A stretch of 64,000 bases of DNA from an uncultured Clostridia bacterium (GTDB lineage: Bacteria > Bacillota > Clostridia > TANB77 > CAG-508): positions 46,145 to 110,144 of the forward strand of contig CATGLK010000002.1 of assembly GCA_949538735.1 (NCBI GenBank), given 5' to 3'. The notes under the pieces are model-generated. The model worked only from the letters and a program-made list of their open reading frames with translations, had not been told where the DNA came from and did no database searches. The translations under genes were made by a program, and so were the position numbers. Position 1 is the first letter of the stretch, and the number at the start of each line of letters is the position of its first letter. Shown piece after piece: positions 3,883 through 50,115 of the stretch.

Positions 3883-3900
3883 CCAACTTTTTTAATGCTT

Positions 3901-4005
3901 TTGGGTGTTTTTGGGGACAGTCCTTAAAAACACCCAATTTTTATTATTCCTAATGGCTAATTTTATTAAAAAGGTGTTTTTTAGGTCTGTCCCCAAAAAC
4001 ACCTT
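3901..4005. repeat. pair of inverted GGGGACAG-core hairpin repeats (GGTGTTTTTGGGGACAGTCC..AAAAACACC), opposite orientations, forming a bidirectional terminator-like structure
   Basis: 3901-3936 and the reverse-complement copy at 3971-4005. Stems GGTGTTTTT/AAAAACACC with GGGGACAG(T/A)CC in the centre. Confidence 0.7.
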
Positions 4006-4009
4006 ATTC

Positions 4010-4375: not shown

Positions 4376-4771
4376 ATGGAAGAGATAGAAAAAGATTTGC
4401 AAATCATAATAAACATATTGAAAGATGAAACAAGCTGTACAGACATAGTGATTTTTGGAAGTTTTGCATTAGGAACACAAAATTCAGAAAGTGACATAGA
4501 TATAGCAATAAGAACAGATAAAGAAATTACCAAAAAAGATATTTTTGAGTTGTCAAATAAATTGTCTGATATCTTAAAAAGAGATATAGATTTAGTGGAT
4601 TTAAAACAAATACAAGATGGTTTCAGATACGAAATTTTAATAAATGGAGAGACAATTTATACAAAAGATGCAATAAATTTTGAATACTACAAGTTAGATA
4701 TGTATAGAGAATATTTGGAGTTAAATGAAAGTAGGCAAGATATAATAAAAAAAATGAAAGAAGGTAAGTAA
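4376..4771 (+). CDS. MNT-type nucleotidyltransferase (antitoxin of HepT/MNT pair)
   Basis: GSFALG...SDIDIAI minimal nucleotidyltransferase motif; immediately followed by a HEPN partner. Confidence 0.75.
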   Translation: MEEIEKDLQIIINILKDETSCTDIVIFGSFALGTQNSESDIDIAIRTDKEITKKDIFELSNKLSDILKRDIDLVDLKQIQDGFRYEILINGETIYTKDAINFEYYKLDMYREYLELNESRQDIIKKMKEGK

Positions 4772-4774
4772 TAA

Positions 4775-5188
4775 ATGGAAAATGAAGCAGTTCTAATTAA
4801 TAAGTTCGAGAGTATCGAAAAGTGTATTAAAAGAATAAATGAAGAATATGAAAACGAACCTCAAAATTTAGAAGATTATAGAAGGCTAGATGCAATTGTG
4901 TTAAACTTGCAAAGAGCGTGTGAATTAGTAACAGATATGGCGATGTATATCGTCTCACACAGAAAATTAGGAGTACCACAAACAAAAAAAGAGGCTTTTA
5001 TAAAATTAGAAGAAAATAGATTAATAGACAACAAGATGAGTGTAAATATGCAGAAAATGATAGGATTTAGAAATATAGCAATACATGATTATAAACAAAT
5101 TGATGAAAAGATATTACAAGATGTTATAGAAAATCATTTAGTTGATTTAACTGATTTTGCAAGGGCAATATTAAATTTAAAAAGATAG
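4775..5188 (+). CDS. HepT/DUF86 HEPN-domain toxin
   Basis: RNIAIHDY (Rx4-6H HEPN motif); 3-nt gap after the MNT gene. Confidence 0.75.
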   Translation: MENEAVLINKFESIEKCIKRINEEYENEPQNLEDYRRLDAIVLNLQRACELVTDMAMYIVSHRKLGVPQTKKEAFIKLEENRLIDNKMSVNMQKMIGFRNIAIHDYKQIDEKILQDVIENHLVDLTDFARAILNLKR

Positions 5189-5215
5189 AAGTACTATAAA
5201 AAAGGAAGAGAAGAA

Positions 5216-5845
5216 ATGGAAATTGAGCAAAAAAAATCAATAATAGAGGCAATACTTTTTGCAGCAGGAAGACCAGTAAGTAAAAATGAGTTTGTACTAG
5301 CGCTTGAGTTACCTGAAGAAGATATTGAGAACATTATAAATAAGATGCAAGAAGAATATAAAAGTGAAAACAGAGGAATAGAACTAATCAAAATAGAAAA
5401 TTCATATCAGTTATGTACAAAAAAATCATTATATGAATATGTCTATCCTGTACTAGACAAAAGAACAAAACCCAATTTGTCAAATGCAGCGCTAGAAACA
5501 TTAGCAATAGTAGCATACAATCCACAAATAACTAGAGCAGAAATAGAAGCAATACGTGGAGTTTCAGCAGATGCGTGTGTATATAAGCTATTAGAATATG
5601 GTTTGATAGAAGAGGCAGGAAAAATTGATTTACCAGGTAAGCCTATGTCATATAAGACAACAAGTGATTTTTTAAGAATGTTTGGTTACAGCTCATTAGA
5701 AGAGTTACCAGAACTTCCAAGATATAAATTAGATGAGAATAAACAAATTGTAATAGATGACCTAATAGAAGGAAATCAAGAGGCTCCAATGCCCGAAAGG
5801 GAAGATGATATGGAAACAGAGCAGAAAATTGAAGAGAATGAATAG
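5216..5845 (+). CDS. scpB: segregation and condensation protein B
   Basis: ScpB winged-helix pattern (IIEAILFAAGRPVS..., LETLAIVAYNPQITRAEIEAIRGV); acidic C-terminal tail. Confidence 0.8.
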   Translation: MEIEQKKSIIEAILFAAGRPVSKNEFVLALELPEEDIENIINKMQEEYKSENRGIELIKIENSYQLCTKKSLYEYVYPVLDKRTKPNLSNAALETLAIVAYNPQITRAEIEAIRGVSADACVYKLLEYGLIEEAGKIDLPGKPMSYKTTSDFLRMFGYSSLEELPELPRYKLDENKQIVIDDLIEGNQEAPMPEREDDMETEQKIEENE

Positions 5846-5860
5846 AAAAGGAGAATAATT

Positions 5861-7144
5861 ATGAAATTATCACAAACAGGAATGGGAACAATAAAATTAA
5901 ACAATATAGACGAAATGTACCCAGGACAAAGTATATTATTACAAACAGGACAATTAGTACAATATGGAGCAGGGCTATTTGCATATAATACAGTGCCATT
6001 ATTAGTAAGAAGAAAAATAGAGCAAATAATTGTAGAGACATTAAACAAATATGGATGTATAGAAGTGTTACTTCCAACATTACAACCTGATACAATATGG
6101 AAAAATTCTGGAAGATATGACCATTATATAAATGACGGAACAATGCTAATTACAGAGAGCAACAAAGGAACATTTTGTTTAGCTCCAACAGGTGAAGAGG
6201 CAATGTTAGAATTTGCAAGAGAAAAATTAAAATCTTACAAAAACTTACCAGTAACATATTATCAAATTGGGGAAAAGGTAAGAAATGAAATAAGAACAAG
6301 GGGATATCTATTAAGAGGAAAATCTTTCCCAATGCTTGACGCATATAGCTTTGATGTTGATACAGAACAAATGGCAAAATCATATGAAAATGTAAGAGCG
6401 GCATTTTTAGAGATATTTGGAATAATAGGTATGAAAGTAATTCCAATTGTAGCTGATAATGGCGCAATGGGTGGAAAGAAATCAGAAGAATTTATGCTAA
6501 TATCAGACCAAGGTGAAGACAAGATTTTATATGATGAAACAACAGGAATAGGATTAAATACAGAAATTCTAGAAAAAGAAAATTATCAAGAATATTTAAA
6601 AGAAGAATATGGAATTGAAGATATATCTAAATTCAAAGAAATAAGAACAATGGAATTAGGACATATATTCCAATTGGGAACTAGATATTCAGAAATGATG
6701 AATGGAAAATTTACAGACAAAGACGGAAAAGAGCAACTTTATTATATGGGATGTTATGGAATAGGTGTAAGTAGAACAGTTGCAGCTTTATATGAACAAT
6801 GTTTGATAAATGACCCAAAATGGGGAGCTTGCGGATTTTCTTTACCTGAGCAAATAGCACCATATAAAGTTCAAATTGTACCAAAAATGGATAATGAAGA
6901 AAAGGTTAAATTAGCAAATGAATTATACGCAGAGCTTCAAAGCCAAGGAATTGGAGCAATATTAGATGATAGAGAAAATTTAAATATTGGTGCTAAGATT
7001 AAAGATTGCAAAGTTTTAGGAACGCCATATTTACTAGTTTTAGGGGATAAACAAGAAGGCGATAATTTTGAATTGGAGAATACTAAAACTGGTGAAAAAA
7101 TTACATTAACTAAGACTGAGTTAATCAATAAATTCAATGCTTAA
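5861..7144 (+). CDS. proS: proline--tRNA ligase (short bacterial type without editing insertion)
   Basis: Class II motif 2 FRNEIRTRGYLLRGKSF and motif 1 region. C-terminal anticodon-binding domain. 427 aa. Confidence 0.75.
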   Translation: MKLSQTGMGTIKLNNIDEMYPGQSILLQTGQLVQYGAGLFAYNTVPLLVRRKIEQIIVETLNKYGCIEVLLPTLQPDTIWKNSGRYDHYINDGTMLITESNKGTFCLAPTGEEAMLEFAREKLKSYKNLPVTYYQIGEKVRNEIRTRGYLLRGKSFPMLDAYSFDVDTEQMAKSYENVRAAFLEIFGIIGMKVIPIVADNGAMGGKKSEEFMLISDQGEDKILYDETTGIGLNTEILEKENYQEYLKEEYGIEDISKFKEIRTMELGHIFQLGTRYSEMMNGKFTDKDGKEQLYYMGCYGIGVSRTVAALYEQCLINDPKWGACGFSLPEQIAPYKVQIVPKMDNEEKVKLANELYAELQSQGIGAILDDRENLNIGAKIKDCKVLGTPYLLVLGDKQEGDNFELENTKTGEKITLTKTELINKFNA

Positions 7145-7153
7145 TTAGTAGTT

Positions 7154-7287
7154 CTGCCAAAGGTTATATATATAATTTTTACCGTTTTCCCCATTCTAAA
7201 AATTCTAACAAAAGTTTTTAACTTTTGAGAATTTTTGAACGGTCCCCACAAACCACTTAAAAAATTATATATATAACCTTTGGCAAG
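7154..7287. repeat. long nested imperfect palindrome (24-bp perfect arms CCAAAGGTTATATATATAATTTTT) containing a GGGGACCG core variant
   Basis: Arms at 7154-7180 and 7262-7287 are exact reverse complements. The interior is itself palindromic around GTTTTTAAC. Confidence 0.7.
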
Positions 7288-23515: not shown

Positions 23516-23939
23516 GTTACTGATTAATGATTTCGAGACAGTGCGGGGAACAATGGGCAAAATTTAGCTTTTATTTTGTTCATTCCATTTGATAAGAATT
23601 TGTATGTTTATAAAAAAAGGAGCTTTCACTCAGGCTCAAGTAATTATTTTATTTTTTGAATAAATTATGAATGTGCCCTGTAATAAGTTTAGAAATTCTT
23701 TAATTATTTTATGGAAAGAGTTCGTGCTGCGACACGGAAGGGAGCCATAAAATAATTTTAGAATTTCTTTGCTTATGTAAGAAACCGAAGAATTTATGAA
23801 AAAAATAAAATAATTACTTGCCCGCGAACATTACTTTTTTTATAAACTTACATATTCTATATCTCATTCCAATCAAATCATAAAAGCTAAATTTTGCCCA
23901 TTGTTCCCCACACTGTCTCGAAATCATTAACCCAGTAAC
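23516..23939. mobile_element. MITE-like non-autonomous element: 57-bp terminal inverted repeats flanking ~310 bp of ORF-less sequence
   Basis: 23516-23572 (GTTACTGATTAATGATTTCGAGACAGTGCGGGGAACAATGGGCAAAATTTAGCTTTT) is the reverse complement of 23882-23939, with 2 mismatches. Confidence 0.6.
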
Positions 23940-26279: not shown

Positions 26280-26448
26280 GTTTTGACCTCCTAATATTTC
26301 AGATATTATTATAATATCCTAATGTAGTATTATAATACAACATATTTGTGAAAATTTTGTGAAAAAATTATAAAAACTTTTACAAAAATTCTATTGAAAA
26401 AAAATGACTAAAAATGTATAATAAACAAAAAGAAAAAGGATGGGAAAA

Positions 26449-27632: not shown

Positions 27633-28961
27633 ATGACAATATTAGATATAATTGAGAAAAAAAGAGACAAACAAGAATTAAGCAAGCAAGAAATTGAATA
27701 TTTTATAAAAGGATATACAGAAGGAACAATAGCAGACTATCAGGCAGCAGCACTAGTAATGGCAATATTTATAAACGGAATGACAAAAGAAGAAACAACA
27801 AACTTAACCCTAGCAATGGCAAACTCAGGAGAAATATTAGATGTTTTGGGTGTTTTTGGGGACAGACCTAAAAAGCATCCAAAAATAATTGTAGATAAAC
27901 ACTCAACAGGTGGAGTGGGTGACAAAGTATCATTAATATTGTTACCACTAGTTGCATCTTGTGGAGTGCCAGTTGCGAAGATGTCTGGACGTGGACTAGG
28001 CTTTACAGGCGGTACAGTTGACAAATTAGAATCAATCCCAGGATATAAAACAGGAATAGATATCAACAGTTTTATACAAAATGTGGAAAACATAGGAATA
28101 AGTATTATTTCACAGACCCTAAACTTAGCACCAGCAGATAAAAAAATATATGCGTTAAGAGATAGTATATCTTGTGTGGAAAGTATACCATTAATTGCAT
28201 CAAGCATAATGAGTAAAAAAATAGCAAGTGGAGCAAATAAAATAGTATTAGATGTAACAGTTGGAAGCGGAGCATTTATGAAAGACATCGAACAGGCAAG
28301 CAAACTTGCAAAAGCAATGATAGAAATAGGAGAATTAGCAAACCGTGAAACAGTATGTGTTTTAACAAATATGGATGAACCACTAGGATATGCAGTAGGA
28401 AACACATTAGAAGTAAAAGAAGCAGTAGAGGCATTAAAAGGAAATATGCCAGAAGATGTAAAACAAGTTGTGCTAGAGCTAGGAGCGCATATGATAAAAC
28501 TAGCAAAAGTAACAGACAACATCGAAAATGCAAAAGAAATATTAATTCAAAAAATAGAAAATGGAGAAGCATTCAACAAATTTGTAGAACTAGTACAAAA
28601 TCAAGGTGGAGACACATCATATATAACAAACTTAGAAAAATTTGAAAAAGCAAAATATATAGAACCTGTATATAGCGAAAAATCAGGATATATACAAAAA
28701 ATAAATGCAGAAACAATAGGCAAACTAGCATGTAGTTTGGGAGCAGGAAGAATTAGAAAAGAAGACAAAATAGATATGTCAGTTGGAATAATACTAAATA
28801 AAAAAGTAGGAAATTATGTAGAAAAAGGTGACTGCTTAGGATATATCCATACAAATAATGATAACACATTAGAAGAAGCAAAACAAACTCTATTAAAGAC
28901 AATCAAAATAGAAGAACAAGAAAAAGAACCAATTAAGACAATATTAAAAATAATTTCTTAG
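27633..28961 (+). CDS. pdp: pyrimidine-nucleoside phosphorylase
   Basis: VDKHSTGGVGDK and SGRGLGFTGGTVDKLESIPG motifs. Contains a repeat-derived segment at 27841-27876. Confidence 0.85.
   Translation: MTILDIIEKKRDKQELSKQEIEYFIKGYTEGTIADYQAAALVMAIFINGMTKEETTNLTLAMANSGEILDVLGVFGDRPKKHPKIIVDKHSTGGVGDKVSLILLPLVASCGVPVAKMSGRGLGFTGGTVDKLESIPGYKTGIDINSFIQNVENIGISIISQTLNLAPADKKIYALRDSISCVESIPLIASSIMSKKIASGANKIVLDVTVGSGAFMKDIEQASKLAKAMIEIGELANRETVCVLTNMDEPLGYAVGNTLEVKEAVEALKGNMPEDVKQVVLELGAHMIKLAKVTDNIENAKEILIQKIENGEAFNKFVELVQNQGGDTSYITNLEKFEKAKYIEPVYSEKSGYIQKINAETIGKLACSLGAGRIRKEDKIDMSVGIILNKKVGNYVEKGDCLGYIHTNNDNTLEEAKQTLLKTIKIEEQEKEPIKTILKIIS
27841..27876 (+). repeat. GGGGACAG-core hairpin repeat copy lying in-frame inside pdp
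   Basis: GGTGTTTTTGGGGACAGACCTAAAAAGCATCC closely matches the intergenic copy at 3903. It encodes an extra VLGVFGDRPKK segment just before the conserved VDKHSTGG. Confidence 0.55.
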
Positions 28962-29033
28962 AAAGTTATGGAAAACAGGACAAAATAATTGAAAAAATTT
29001 TTAAATATGCTATAATATTTACAGTGATATTTA

Positions 29034-29096
29034 TAGATGTGTCCCAAAATGGACAAAATGTCCAAAAGGAAACGTCCCCAATGGGACAATGGGCAT
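29034..29096 (+). repeat. GTCC/GGAC-array repeat (subfamily L), intergenic copy
   Basis: ATAGATGTGTCCCAAAATGGACAAAATGTCCAAAAGGAAACGTCCCCAATGGGACA. Confidence 0.7.
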
Positions 29097-48317: not shown

Positions 48318-49014
48318 AATTTTTAATCACCTCCAATAAATCAGACTTATATTTAGGACCAATATCACAAAAACTATCATCCTTAAAAGTAACAGTTCCA
48401 GAAACTGGTTCAATATCTTTAATTTGCAAAACATTAGCAACACAAGACTTATGACATCTTATATAAAAATCAGGAAGTCTATCCTGAAACTTAGCAAAAG
48501 AGCTATAAATATCATAATCACGAGAAGCAGTATGAAAAACAAGTTTCATACCATCCCTCTTAACATATTGCACTTCATTTGCATCAACAACAGTATTCTT
48601 ATTATCAAGCTTAATATATCTTTTAGGAGTCCCATTAACATCCTCAAAAAGTCGACAAATAGTTTCAGCCAACCTATCATAAGTAATAGGCTTAGCCAAA
48701 TAATCAAAAGTCTTAAACTTATAAGCAAGCAAAGCATACTCCAAATGACCAGTAGTAAAGATGATATAAGAATCCTTATTTATTTTTCTAATCGCCCTTG
48801 CTAATTCTAAGCCAGTCTTATCAGAATTCAAATTTATATCCAATATAATAACATCAGCTTTATTAGCAGTAACAAATTTAAGCATATCAGTTGAATTTGT
48901 AGTCTTATAAGAAACACAAGCCTCAAAATTATTTTTTGCAAAGATATCTTCTAACATTTTTTCTAATTTATTCAAAAGATTTAAGTTATCATCACATAAA
49001 GCAAAATTCAACAT
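48301..49014 (-). CDS. agrA: LytTR-family response regulator (AgrA-like), paralog 1
   Basis: Receiver domain (CDDN, IILDINL) plus LytTR DNA-binding domain. Overlaps the agrC start by 17 nt. RBS GGGGTGA. Confidence 0.8.
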   Translation of the reverse strand: MLNFALCDDNLNLLNKLEKMLEDIFAKNNFEACVSYKTTNSTDMLKFVTANKADVIILDINLNSDKTGLELARAIRKINKDSYIIFTTGHLEYALLAYKFKTFDYLAKPITYDRLAETICRLFEDVNGTPKRYIKLDNKNTVVDANEVQYVKRDGMKLVFHTASRDYDIYSSFAKFQDRLPDFYIRCHKSCVANVLQIKDIEPVSGTVTFKDDSFCDIGPKYKSDLLEVIKNYGNFE

Positions 49015-49398: not shown

Positions 49399-50115
49399 TT
49401 AAATTAATACTTGTGATGTTTTAGAAAGAGCGCCTAACAAATCAGATTTATATTTTGGTCCAATATCACAAGAGCTACCATCTTTAAAAGTAATAGTACC
49501 AGATACTGGTTCAACATCTACAATTTGTGAAATATTAGCAATACAAGATTTATGACATCTTTTATAAGAATCAGGTAGTCTATCTTGAAACTTGTTAAAA
49601 GAGCTATAAATTTCATAATCACGACCAGCAGTATGGAAAACAAGTTTCATACCATCTCTTTTTATAAAATGCACTTCTGAAGCATCAACAAGAGTATTTT
49701 TGTTATCAAGTTTTATATATCTTTTAGGAGTTCCATTAATATCTTCAAAAAGTCTTAATATAGTTTCTTCTAGTCTATCATATGTAATTGGTTTTGCTAA
49801 ATAGTCGAATGTTTTAAATTTATAAGCGACCATAGCATATTCTAAATGAGCAGTAGTAAATATTATATAAGCATCCTTATTTATTTTCCTAATTGCCTCT
49901 GCTAGTTCTAATCCTGTTTTATTACATTTTAAATTGATGTCTAACATTATTACATCAACCTTATTGTTGCTAACATAGTCAAGCATATCTGTTGTGTCTG
50001 AACACCTGTAAGATACATTAGCTTCAAAATTGTTTTTGATAAAGATGTTGTCTAACATTTTTTCTAATCTGTCTAAAATATTTAAGTTGTCATCACATAT
50101 AGCGAATTTTAGCAT
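49399..50115 (-). CDS. LytTR-family response regulator (AgrA-like), paralog 2
   Basis: About 75% identical to paralog 1. Start set at MLKFAICDD, which has RBS GGGGAG. Upstream promoter regions of the two paralogs are also similar. Confidence 0.8.
   Translation of the reverse strand: MLKFAICDDNLNILDRLEKMLDNIFIKNNFEANVSYRCSDTTDMLDYVSNNKVDVIMLDINLKCNKTGLELAEAIRKINKDAYIIFTTAHLEYAMVAYKFKTFDYLAKPITYDRLEETILRLFEDINGTPKRYIKLDNKNTLVDASEVHFIKRDGMKLVFHTAGRDYEIYSSFNKFQDRLPDSYKRCHKSCIANISQIVDVEPVSGTITFKDGSSCDIGPKYKSDLLGALSKTSQVLI

Follow-up and report, generated by a model that had tools for sequence, protein, structure and literature searches.

In-frame insertions of short palindromic repeats into coding sequences are a known curiosity, mainly of Proteobacteria and Rickettsia. 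The closest described system comprises the repetitive extragenic palindromes (REPs), their inverted doublets (REPINs) and the REP-associated tyrosine transposases (RAYTs), descriptions of which are reportedly found in Nunvar 2010 as well as Bertels and Rainey 2011. In-frame intragenic REPs were documented for several Proteobacteria, for Opitutus and for Rickettsia (PMC3733652), and those catalogued by Di Nocera 2013 include copies in recB, uvrA, truA and truB (PMC3733652). The short Rickettsia palindromic elements (RPEs) RPE-4 and RPE-6 were classed as CGTC REPs in the same work (Di Nocera, PMC3733652). For Clostridia, the sole mention found in the literature concerns Group 1 RAYTs whose flanking repeats were only of low abundance (Bertels 2017, PMC5581495). 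The present analysis concerns 64,000 nt of an uncultured Clostridia bacterium (contig CATGLK010000002.1, positions 46,145 to 110,144; hereafter the window), in which pdp, encoding a pyrimidine-nucleoside phosphorylase (PyNP), contains a short repeat-derived segment. With a probability of roughly 0.8, this segment derives from a repetitive palindromic element of the REP type, a hairpin spread by a RAYT, of which a copy was inserted in frame and later remodelled. The two features concerned are, in window positions:

27633-28961, plus strand: pdp, open reading frame (ORF) of 442 aa, intact, all catalytic motifs conserved
27840-27884, plus strand: REP-derived in-frame segment, codons 70-84 (DVLGVFGDRPKKHPK), supported by matches to other copies, ortholog alignments, fold and the gap against the solved structure 1BRW

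The window has 29% G+C and a strongly purine-skewed plus strand. Homologs of the window Pdp carry the domains PF02885, PF00591 and PF07831, and the solved PyNP 1BRW from Bacillus stearothermophilus aligned with it from end to end (E = 9e-136); the whole protein conforms to the PyNP/thymidine phosphorylase fold, both KHSTGGVGD and SGRGLG are present, and V87-K98 and K116-T128 are among the invariant columns of the ortholog alignment. A first-pass annotation, made from the letters of the window alone, had proposed a dispersed repeat copy in frame within pdp at 27841-27876. Such a copy was recovered as the 32-mer GGTGTTTTTGGGGACAGACCTAAAAAGCATCC, the proposed position being off by 4-8 nt: the 32-mer occupies 27849-27880, in frame in the 442-aa ORF, where it encodes ...LD VLGVFGDRPKKHPK IIVDKHSTGG. 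It matched 3972-4003 on the minus strand with 3 mismatches, and the 39 nt at 27844-27882 were 90% identical to the intergenic stretch 3899-3937, while 100 dinucleotide shuffles gave 0 matches of such quality. The hairpin of the pdp copy spans 27844-27884, with the conserved loop motif GGGGACAG at 27858-27865, and folds as DNA at -9.1 kcal/mol (z = -3.0).

About eight residues were said by the same annotation to be added just upstream of VDKHSTGGVGD, at a place where other Pdp proteins have a short loop. Both statements agree with the alignments: the net gain over the ancestral LS-NLNK loop is 8 aa, relative to 434-aa orthologs as well as to 1BRW, in which the gap opposite the 8 extra residues falls between G76 and V77, and all homologs of at most 78% identity are short at this place, as is 1BRW. 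Two residues separate the end of the insert from the invariant VDKHSTGGVGD that follows; the His and Ser of this motif belong to the active site in the PyNP family (PMC2719695). In an AlphaFold2 model (shallow alignment of 24 sequences; mean predicted local distance difference test score, pLDDT, of 76.8, with residues 118-170 also poor), pLDDT was below 50 at residues 67-85, a low value that is only consistent with a flexible loop. Pdp would tolerate the insert because it lies in such a loop, which may be neutral for the enzyme.

For the history of the site, the 120 best Pdp homologs were compared, together with the DNA of related loci (L numbers). Homologs of at most 78% identity were all 434-436 aa long, with the loop ...LDLS-NLNK-IIVDKHSTGG. 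Closer relatives comprised 439, 442, 446, 450 or 458 aa and carried one or two copies of the 12-aa unit (D/G)(V/A)F(G/R)D(R/G)(A/P)K(K/M/I)HQK at the loop; the insert was present in every Pdp of at least 79% identity and in none of at most 78%. The alignment to orthologs and the comparison of strains and species for presence or absence, both proposed by the first-pass annotation, thus revealed a true insertion at this loop, and the empty site could be read in the DNA of L006 and L007 as ...GAT TTA TCA/AAT CTA AAT AAG ATA. In L003, exactly 36 nt are extra after TCT (GATGTTTTTGGGGACAGAGCAAAAATGCATCAAAAG), including both stem arms and the GGGGAC loop, and no direct repeat flanks this insertion when compared with the empty site (approximately 22% diverged). 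Two 36-nt units stand in tandem in L005, two units with trimmed flanks in L204, and a single unit with trimmed flanks in L205, L001 and L203 (439 aa); the window allele consists of a trimmed unit plus 9 nt (442 aa). The gene order rnhB-pdp-small ORF-cdaA-truA was kept at all compared loci. In a neighbour-joining tree of the Pdp proteins, built without the indel columns, the insert-bearing sequences formed one clade, with the empty-site proteins P0029/P0030 as sister group and the clean 36-nt form on basal branches. As judged from these sequences, a single ancestral insertion followed by remodelling would be the most parsimonious history. The element predates this insertion, because its family also occurs in a lineage with an empty pdp site (L007, position 24).

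Relatives of the element were surveyed by pattern scan, with one genome per species and a copy catalogue ascertained through a single search pattern. The element was present in at least 115 stretches, nearly all from metagenome-assembled genomes (MAGs) of uncultured gut Clostridia (human, rabbit, chicken, mouse, ruminants). In the window, 9 hairpins were counted by a strict criterion, and GGGGAC/GTCCCC occurs 18 times, against about 3 occurrences estimated by hand from base composition. The copies in the window to which the text refers are:

3899-3937, plus strand: intergenic REP, first of a (+,-) doublet, closest relative of the pdp copy, 17-bp stem, -13.7 kcal/mol
3968-4006, minus strand: intergenic REP, second of the doublet; GGTGTTTTTGGGGACAGACCTAAAAA identical to the pdp copy over 26 nt
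11540-11603, plus strand: two adjacent REPs, one of the AAAC/GGGACAGGCC type and one of a degenerate GGGACGGAGCA type
30229-30267, plus strand: intergenic REP of the GATG/GAAGCA type after the cdaA terminator, with an ortholog in L001 and L205
42064-42172, plus strand: three tandem REP units with a period of 36 nt, equal to that of the pdp insertion unit
59569-59607, plus strand: intergenic REP of the GATG/GGAGCA type after a terminator; frame +1 reads DVFGDGAKKH

The element measures 31-36 nt and consists of a variable self-complementary stem of 9-10 bp (NNNN-TTTTT / AAAAA-NNNN) and a loop with the conserved start GGGGAC(A/G)G; information content was highest over T5-GGGGACGG. About 1 Mb of related DNA yielded 183 hairpins whose stems were perfect over at least 7 bp; GGGGACGGAGCAA, GGGGACGGAGGAA and GGGGACGGACTCA were their commonest loops. 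Covariation was evident at positions 8 and 9 of the stem, on which the search pattern placed no constraint: all four Watson-Crick pairs occurred there, with approximately 80% pairing that fell to background by position 11. G:T and A:C mismatches in the stems were equally frequent (41 vs 35); the palindrome is therefore maintained at the level of DNA and not as one RNA strand, and an RNA-structure hypothesis was rejected on the same lack of asymmetry. Folded as DNA, the copies had energies of -5.8 to -13.7 kcal/mol (z from -2.5 to -5).

By crude gene calls (long purine-rich ORFs), 174 of the 183 hairpins were intergenic, at a median of 28 nt from the upstream stop codon. Solitary hairpins had co-directional neighbours (46 sense, 18 antisense) or stood between convergent genes (8), and none was found between divergent genes in the surveyed DNA; some window copies directly follow canonical terminators. 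Copies at most 200 nt apart were arranged as (+,-) in 44 cases, as (-,+) in 0 and in tandem in 9, and doublet partners share loop variant and stem, with spacers of 6-87 nt that are mutually unrelated. The family is thus a short imperfect palindrome of high copy number, mainly extragenic and downstream of ORFs, which is the generic definition of a REP, and its inverted doublets with a short spacer, exemplified in the window by 3899-4006, have the form of REPINs. A scan of the window with all Rfam families at gathering thresholds returned only glmS and one tRNA, the hairpins being covered by no family, and a full-text literature search for the motif strings TTTTGGGGAC and GTCCCCAAAA gave only unrelated primer and viral matches. 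A likeness to CRISPR repeats (a 36-nt unit, and GGGGAC as in Cas13a repeats) was dropped, as spacers are absent and the motif is accounted for by the link to the RAYT.

Two further repeat families were observed in the window. One, of about 52 nt (ATTGGGGACGTTTCCTTTTGGACATTTTGTCCATTTTGGGACACATC) with overlapping small palindromes, occurs at 16743-16799, 29030-29091 and 43316-43367; a copy lies between pdp and the 42-aa ORF/cdaA in all insert-bearing loci, and a diverged form occupies the corresponding position in the empty-site locus L006. It is probably the REP of a second, related RAYT, because its architecture equals that of the 5' flanks of the RAYT homologs L123, L131 and L135. The other, a third GGGGAC family, forms inverted doublets (TTGCCAACGGGGACGGACCTTTTTGGCAA / TTGCCAAAAAGGTCCGTCCCCGTTGGCAA) at 12223-12278 and 39086-39159, one of them just downstream of glmS, and resembles the flanks of the RAYT homolog L130 (TGTCAAAAGGGACGCCCTTTTTTGACA).

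The REP core is free of stops in nearly all frames, with frame +1 rich in Gly/Asp/Lys and the other frames rich in Cys/Trp/Phe/Leu. A second intact host gene was found in L058 (contig CANBES010000004.1), whose trmFO (4678-6039, minus strand; 453 aa, aligned with 3G5Q over its full length) contains ATCGATGTTTTTGGGGACGGAGCAAAAAAACATCGAT, a REP with a perfect 12-bp stem (-10.7 kcal/mol). It is read in the same frame as the pdp copy, giving DVFGDGAKKH in ...NAIDVFGDGAKKHRFSE...; this peptide, encoded by the 59569 REP in frame +1, also occurs in the 439-aa Pdp allele. Compared with the 74%-identical ortholog of L032, the flanking codons are conserved and 36 nt stand in place of 33 nt. The Gly/Asp/Lys-rich peptide of frame +1 may explain why pdp and trmFO share a frame, which with n = 2 is no more than suggestive.

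Further matches inside ORFs, as returned by the crude gene caller, were located in L028, L034, L063, L093, L109 and L115; those in L028 and L034 were read as intergenic REPs traversed by short ORFs or by spurious extensions of N-termini, and were rejected as intragenic copies. Concatenated REP-encoded peptides, searched against a database of 5.8 billion proteins, retrieved three short ORFs only, in a search in which a single 12-aa match cannot reach E <= 10. Near position 6450 of L105, a long ORF reads ...EDVSQNGQNVQKETSPNVHDVIIVGAGPAGISA, in which the part GQNVQKETSPN resembles the translated 52-nt repeat before a flavoprotein N-terminus; this could be an intragenic copy or a spurious N-terminal extension. 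In the window, the ComEC-like ORF 16668-18239 begins before the 16743 repeat (CVPKWTKCPKRNVPNGH), and the start of an ORF of 88 aa (59575-59841) falls inside the 59569 REP (MFLGTEQKN). Both starts are likely annotation artefacts arising from stop-free repeats, and in the annotation of MAGs such hairpins give rise to false ORFs and to falsely extended N-termini, as with ComEC at 16668 and the ORF at 59575.

Coding and non-coding copies of one genome were found to resemble each other. The variant GCATTTAGGGAC, with the arm GATGCATTTAGGGAC, occurs only in L005 (of about 1.3 Mb), where each of the two pdp units has it, as does each of the two intergenic REPs lying 1.3 kb downstream; the orthologous intergenic site of other genomes has GATGTTTTTGGGGAC instead of this arm. 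The window pdp copy is of the GGGTGTTTTTGGGGACAGACCT type (GGTG..AGACCT), of which 9 copies were found, dominant at the loci of its own species and nearly confined to them. L001, which is approximately 97.9% identical to the window over 15 kb and therefore belongs to the same species, has a pdp copy of the GATG/GGAGCA type that matches the REP 2.4 kb downstream except for the first base, and the L205 ortholog of the 30229 REP likewise matches the 439-aa pdp allele except for the first base. Between the window and L001, the REP patch is a hotspot of divergence, with 7 of 39 nt changed and a 9-nt indel on a background of 2.1% over 2.5 kb (binomial P = 1.5e-5). Stretches of 26-31 nt of the pdp copies are identical to intergenic copies. 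Since the two alleles come close to identity with two different REP subfamilies of the genome, they are unlikely to have arisen by independent point mutations, and templated replacement of the intragenic copy, by ectopic conversion or mediated by the transposase, would be the better explanation. Whether the intragenic REP is a live member of the REP population, repeatedly overwritten by the current subfamily through ectopic conversion or re-templating by the RAYT, is put forward tentatively, at somewhat less than even odds. If so, a selfish element would drive rapid within-species change of a peptide loop whose end lies two residues short of the phosphate-binding motif in a core metabolic enzyme; the TrmFO loop would be affected likewise, and protein evolution would proceed in concert with non-coding repeats.

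A candidate for the mobilising enzyme was found by searching the related DNA for ORFs bracketed by inverted hairpin copies. The ORF 6252-6995 (minus strand) of L112 encodes 247 aa with HAH, an HUH motif, and YIHLNPVKA...YKYSSY; its score against NF047646 (REP-associated tyrosine transposase) was 80.9 bits, the cutoff being 80, and PF01797 (Y1_Tnp) matched with E = 6.5e-14. The hairpins on its two sides, (+) at about 6146-6180 and (-) at about 7127-7160, belong to the GGACTC variant. A homolog with 44% identity from another species (L030, 6482-7255; 83.4 bits on NF047646) has the same flanking (+)/(-) hairpins, the downstream one abutting the stop codon. Both related genomes thus contain a RAYT gene flanked by its REPs, the arrangement called a REPtron. 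The RAYT proteins comprise about 250 aa, with a C-terminal extension of about 100 aa past the Y1 domain.

Scanning metagenomes with the L112 and L030 proteins yielded 80 loci with G+C contents of 24-54%. Sufficient flanking DNA (300 nt) was available for 61 RAYT homologs, at which GGGAC[AG] occurred upstream 44 times on the plus and 3 times on the minus strand, and downstream 47 times on the minus and 6 times on the plus strand. The configuration with plus upstream and minus downstream was present at 28 of the 61 loci, against 1 in the reversed control. According to these oriented counts, GGGGAC(A/G)G is a conserved flank signature of this RAYT subgroup. An IS200-like Y1_Tnp fragment in L003 (19600-20020) was also considered as the mobilising enzyme and rejected, being a frameshifted remnant of an ordinary IS200 without GGGGAC hairpins; it had no other convincing match in the related DNA compared (weakest E-values 1.5 and 4.8). 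This remnant adjoins a PF04754 transposase gene.

The proposed course of events is as follows. The RAYT, a single-copy Y1/HUH enzyme, would recognise hairpin and motif on single-stranded DNA and disseminate the element, with catalysis on these hairpins by the RAYT itself. In the ancestor of a clade of genus rank, one 36-nt unit, a multiple of three and stop-free in its frame, entered the Pdp loop that leads into strand beta-1 and contributed a Gly/Asp/Lys-rich peptide (DVFGDRAKKHQK). Tandem duplication of the unit and trimming of the flanking ancestral codons came afterwards, as presumably did replacement by other REP subfamilies of the same genome, which would have left conspecific strains with differing Pdp loops.

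Several points weigh against this account. No RAYT gene was found by tblastn within the 64-kb window, and the REPtron evidence comes from two related species, with NCBIfam scores barely above the cutoff. The element has no GTAG/CGTC terminal tags and carries its motif in the loop and not at the stem base, so that recognition by a RAYT would be an extrapolation from the classical systems. At pdp, no target-site signature is definable, the nearest empty site being about 22% diverged. The REP of trmFO occupies an ancestral loop of equal size (net +1 aa), for which insertion alone is insufficient; insertion plus deletion, or patch replacement, is therefore required. The neighbour-joining topology among Pdp sequences of 97-99% identity is not robust, and the pdp alleles could also have been reshuffled by ordinary homologous recombination among strains. 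The AlphaFold2 model, owing to its shallow alignment and its second poor region, does not demonstrate surface exposure of the loop.

Among the alternatives, spread and homogenisation by host processes alone (template switching or slippage at hairpins, ectopic conversion) are unlikely; the RAYT association would then be incidental, or REPs would accumulate near the RAYT. The lack of a RAYT in the window would suit it, as would the tandem 36-nt arrays at 42064-42172 and in pdp of L005 and L204, the resemblance of the trmFO copy to patch replacement rather than insertion, and the within-species switching of alleles between REP subfamilies; CGTC-type REPs were moreover reported without a dedicated transposase (PMC3733652). 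Gene conversion, however, homogenises copies but cannot found a new one where none existed before, as in the pdp loop, and the oriented GGGAC[AG] flanks (28 of 61 RAYT homologs vs 1 control) extend over 24-54% G+C, which points to a functional link between protein and motif, conserved for far longer than local accumulation could explain.

It is quite improbable that the hairpin is a selected cis-element downstream of genes (a binding site for a DNA- or RNA-binding protein, a stabiliser of mRNA 3' ends or a signal for DNA uptake) and not a selfish repeat spread by a transposase, with the pdp copy a by-product of recombination. The motif flanks RAYT genes in fixed polarity across very diverse metagenomes, the REPIN geometry is strictly (+,-) with unrelated spacers, copies arose de novo inside two unrelated housekeeping genes, no Rfam family matched, and the similar numbers of G:T (41) and A:C (35) mismatches argue against selection on one RNA strand. 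The sense bias (46 vs 18), the median of 28 nt after stops and the absence between divergent genes are what such an element would show, but classical REPs have the same downstream-of-gene bias (PMC3733652). The strong conservation of the loop motif next to variable stems also speaks for a cis-element, and the many type IV pilin-like proteins in the window, together with ComEC, could fit an uptake signal.

That the extra loop is a lineage-specific Pdp expansion resembling the repeat by chance is hardly credible: an AT-rich genome (29% G+C) easily yields T-run/A-run similarity and the REP-like segment of trmFO has the length of the ancestral loop, but 26-31 nt are identical to intergenic copies, with 0 expected from shuffles, L003 has an exact 36-nt insertion with both stem arms and the GGGGAC loop, pdp and intergenic copies of the same genome share lineage-specific REP variants, the intergenic copies recur in dozens of independent assemblies, and repeat similarity was found in every insert-bearing ortholog, where the first-pass annotation would have taken orthologs having the segment without it as a sign of chance.

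Other features of the window were recorded alongside. A 51-nt inverted repeat, 98% complementary, has its arms at 23524-23574 and 23880-23930, separated by 305 nt, in the gap between a clp-like ATPase gene and the next gene; it is unrelated to the GGGGAC families and could be a small MITE (miniature inverted-repeat transposable element) or an invertible segment. Near-identical prepilin-type N-termini (KGITLIALVITIIVLLILA; family D1) start several genes, at 26434, 32919, 34349 and 44309, and a recent duplication of about 370 nt was seen among the prepilin genes (32720-33090 / 34149-34520), with ComEC nearby, which points to numerous paralogous type IV pilins or pseudopilins. A 300-nt direct repeat with 85% identity (48335-48634 / 49436-49735) lies in two neighbouring minus-strand genes, apparently paralogs that encode response-regulator-like proteins. 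The Rfam scan had as its positive control:

41084-41236, minus strand: glmS ribozyme (RF00234, 88.6 bits), upstream of glmS (39162-41009, minus strand)

Beyond what has been described, the present data add an abundant REP population with its cognate RAYT in uncultured gut Clostridia of low G+C content, the breadth of the GGGGAC-RAYT association, and a dated series at pdp, from the empty site over a clean 36-nt insertion and tandem duplication to flank trimming. They also provide evidence of a coding copy co-evolving with non-coding copies, so that REP turnover would create protein polymorphism next to an active site. The conserved loop motif GGGGACRG on a stem of free sequence is likewise new; it extends the GGGGWSAS clue discussed below and offers a testable recognition model for a RAYT subgroup.

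Compared with known systems, MITEs (Correia/NEMIS, Nezha, RUP, ERIC) resemble the element in being dispersed and non-autonomous, in that they can be co-transcribed and in their occasional toleration inside ORFs. They differ in their size of 70-300 bp, terminal inverted repeats (TIRs) and target-site duplications, whereas the element is a single 31-36-nt hairpin with no duplication visible at pdp. The likeness to RPEs, raised by the first-pass annotation, stands as an analogy of outcome, namely a palindromic repeat in frame in a housekeeping ORF with an intact host protein and the insert in a loop. It fails as a membership, the element being a REP-type hairpin of 31-36 nt in Clostridia. RPE-1 is said (Ogata et al. 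2000) to measure about 100-150 bp, to encode about 30-50 aa and to reside in alphaproteobacterial obligate intracellular bacteria, and it is not known to have a cognate transposase; the unit described here has 36 nt and 12 aa, a Clostridia host and no sequence relationship to RPE-1. RPE-4 and RPE-6 bear the CGTC tag, which is absent from the Clostridia element.

TIRtrons, in which TIRYT tyrosine transposases are flanked by TIRs sharing GGGGWSAS (PMC3733652), have in common with the present system the inverted motif copies flanking the transposase and moderately abundant derived repeat families. GGGGACAG fits GGGGWSAS exactly and GGGGACGG fits it at 7 of 8 positions. The published examples are mostly from Acidobacteria and Proteobacteria, whereas the host here belongs to the Clostridia; membership of the TIRYT subgroup is a lead, judged on the flank motif. 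From the classical REPs, which have a GTAG/CGTC terminal tag, the element differs by its consensus ..g.TGTTTTTGGGGACGGAgcAAAAAAACA.c.., with neither GTAG nor CGTC at either end, by GGGGACRG in the loop and by the free sequence of its stem. With the REP/REPIN-RAYT system of E. coli, Pseudomonas and Stenotrophomonas (PMC3733652, PMC5581495) it shares the short imperfect palindrome, the high copy number and the mostly extragenic location, as well as the position near 3' ends between co-directional or convergent genes, the inverted doublets and the flanking of a single-copy Y1/HUH transposase. Functionally and structurally, the system is a REP/REPIN-RAYT system with an in-frame intragenic copy.

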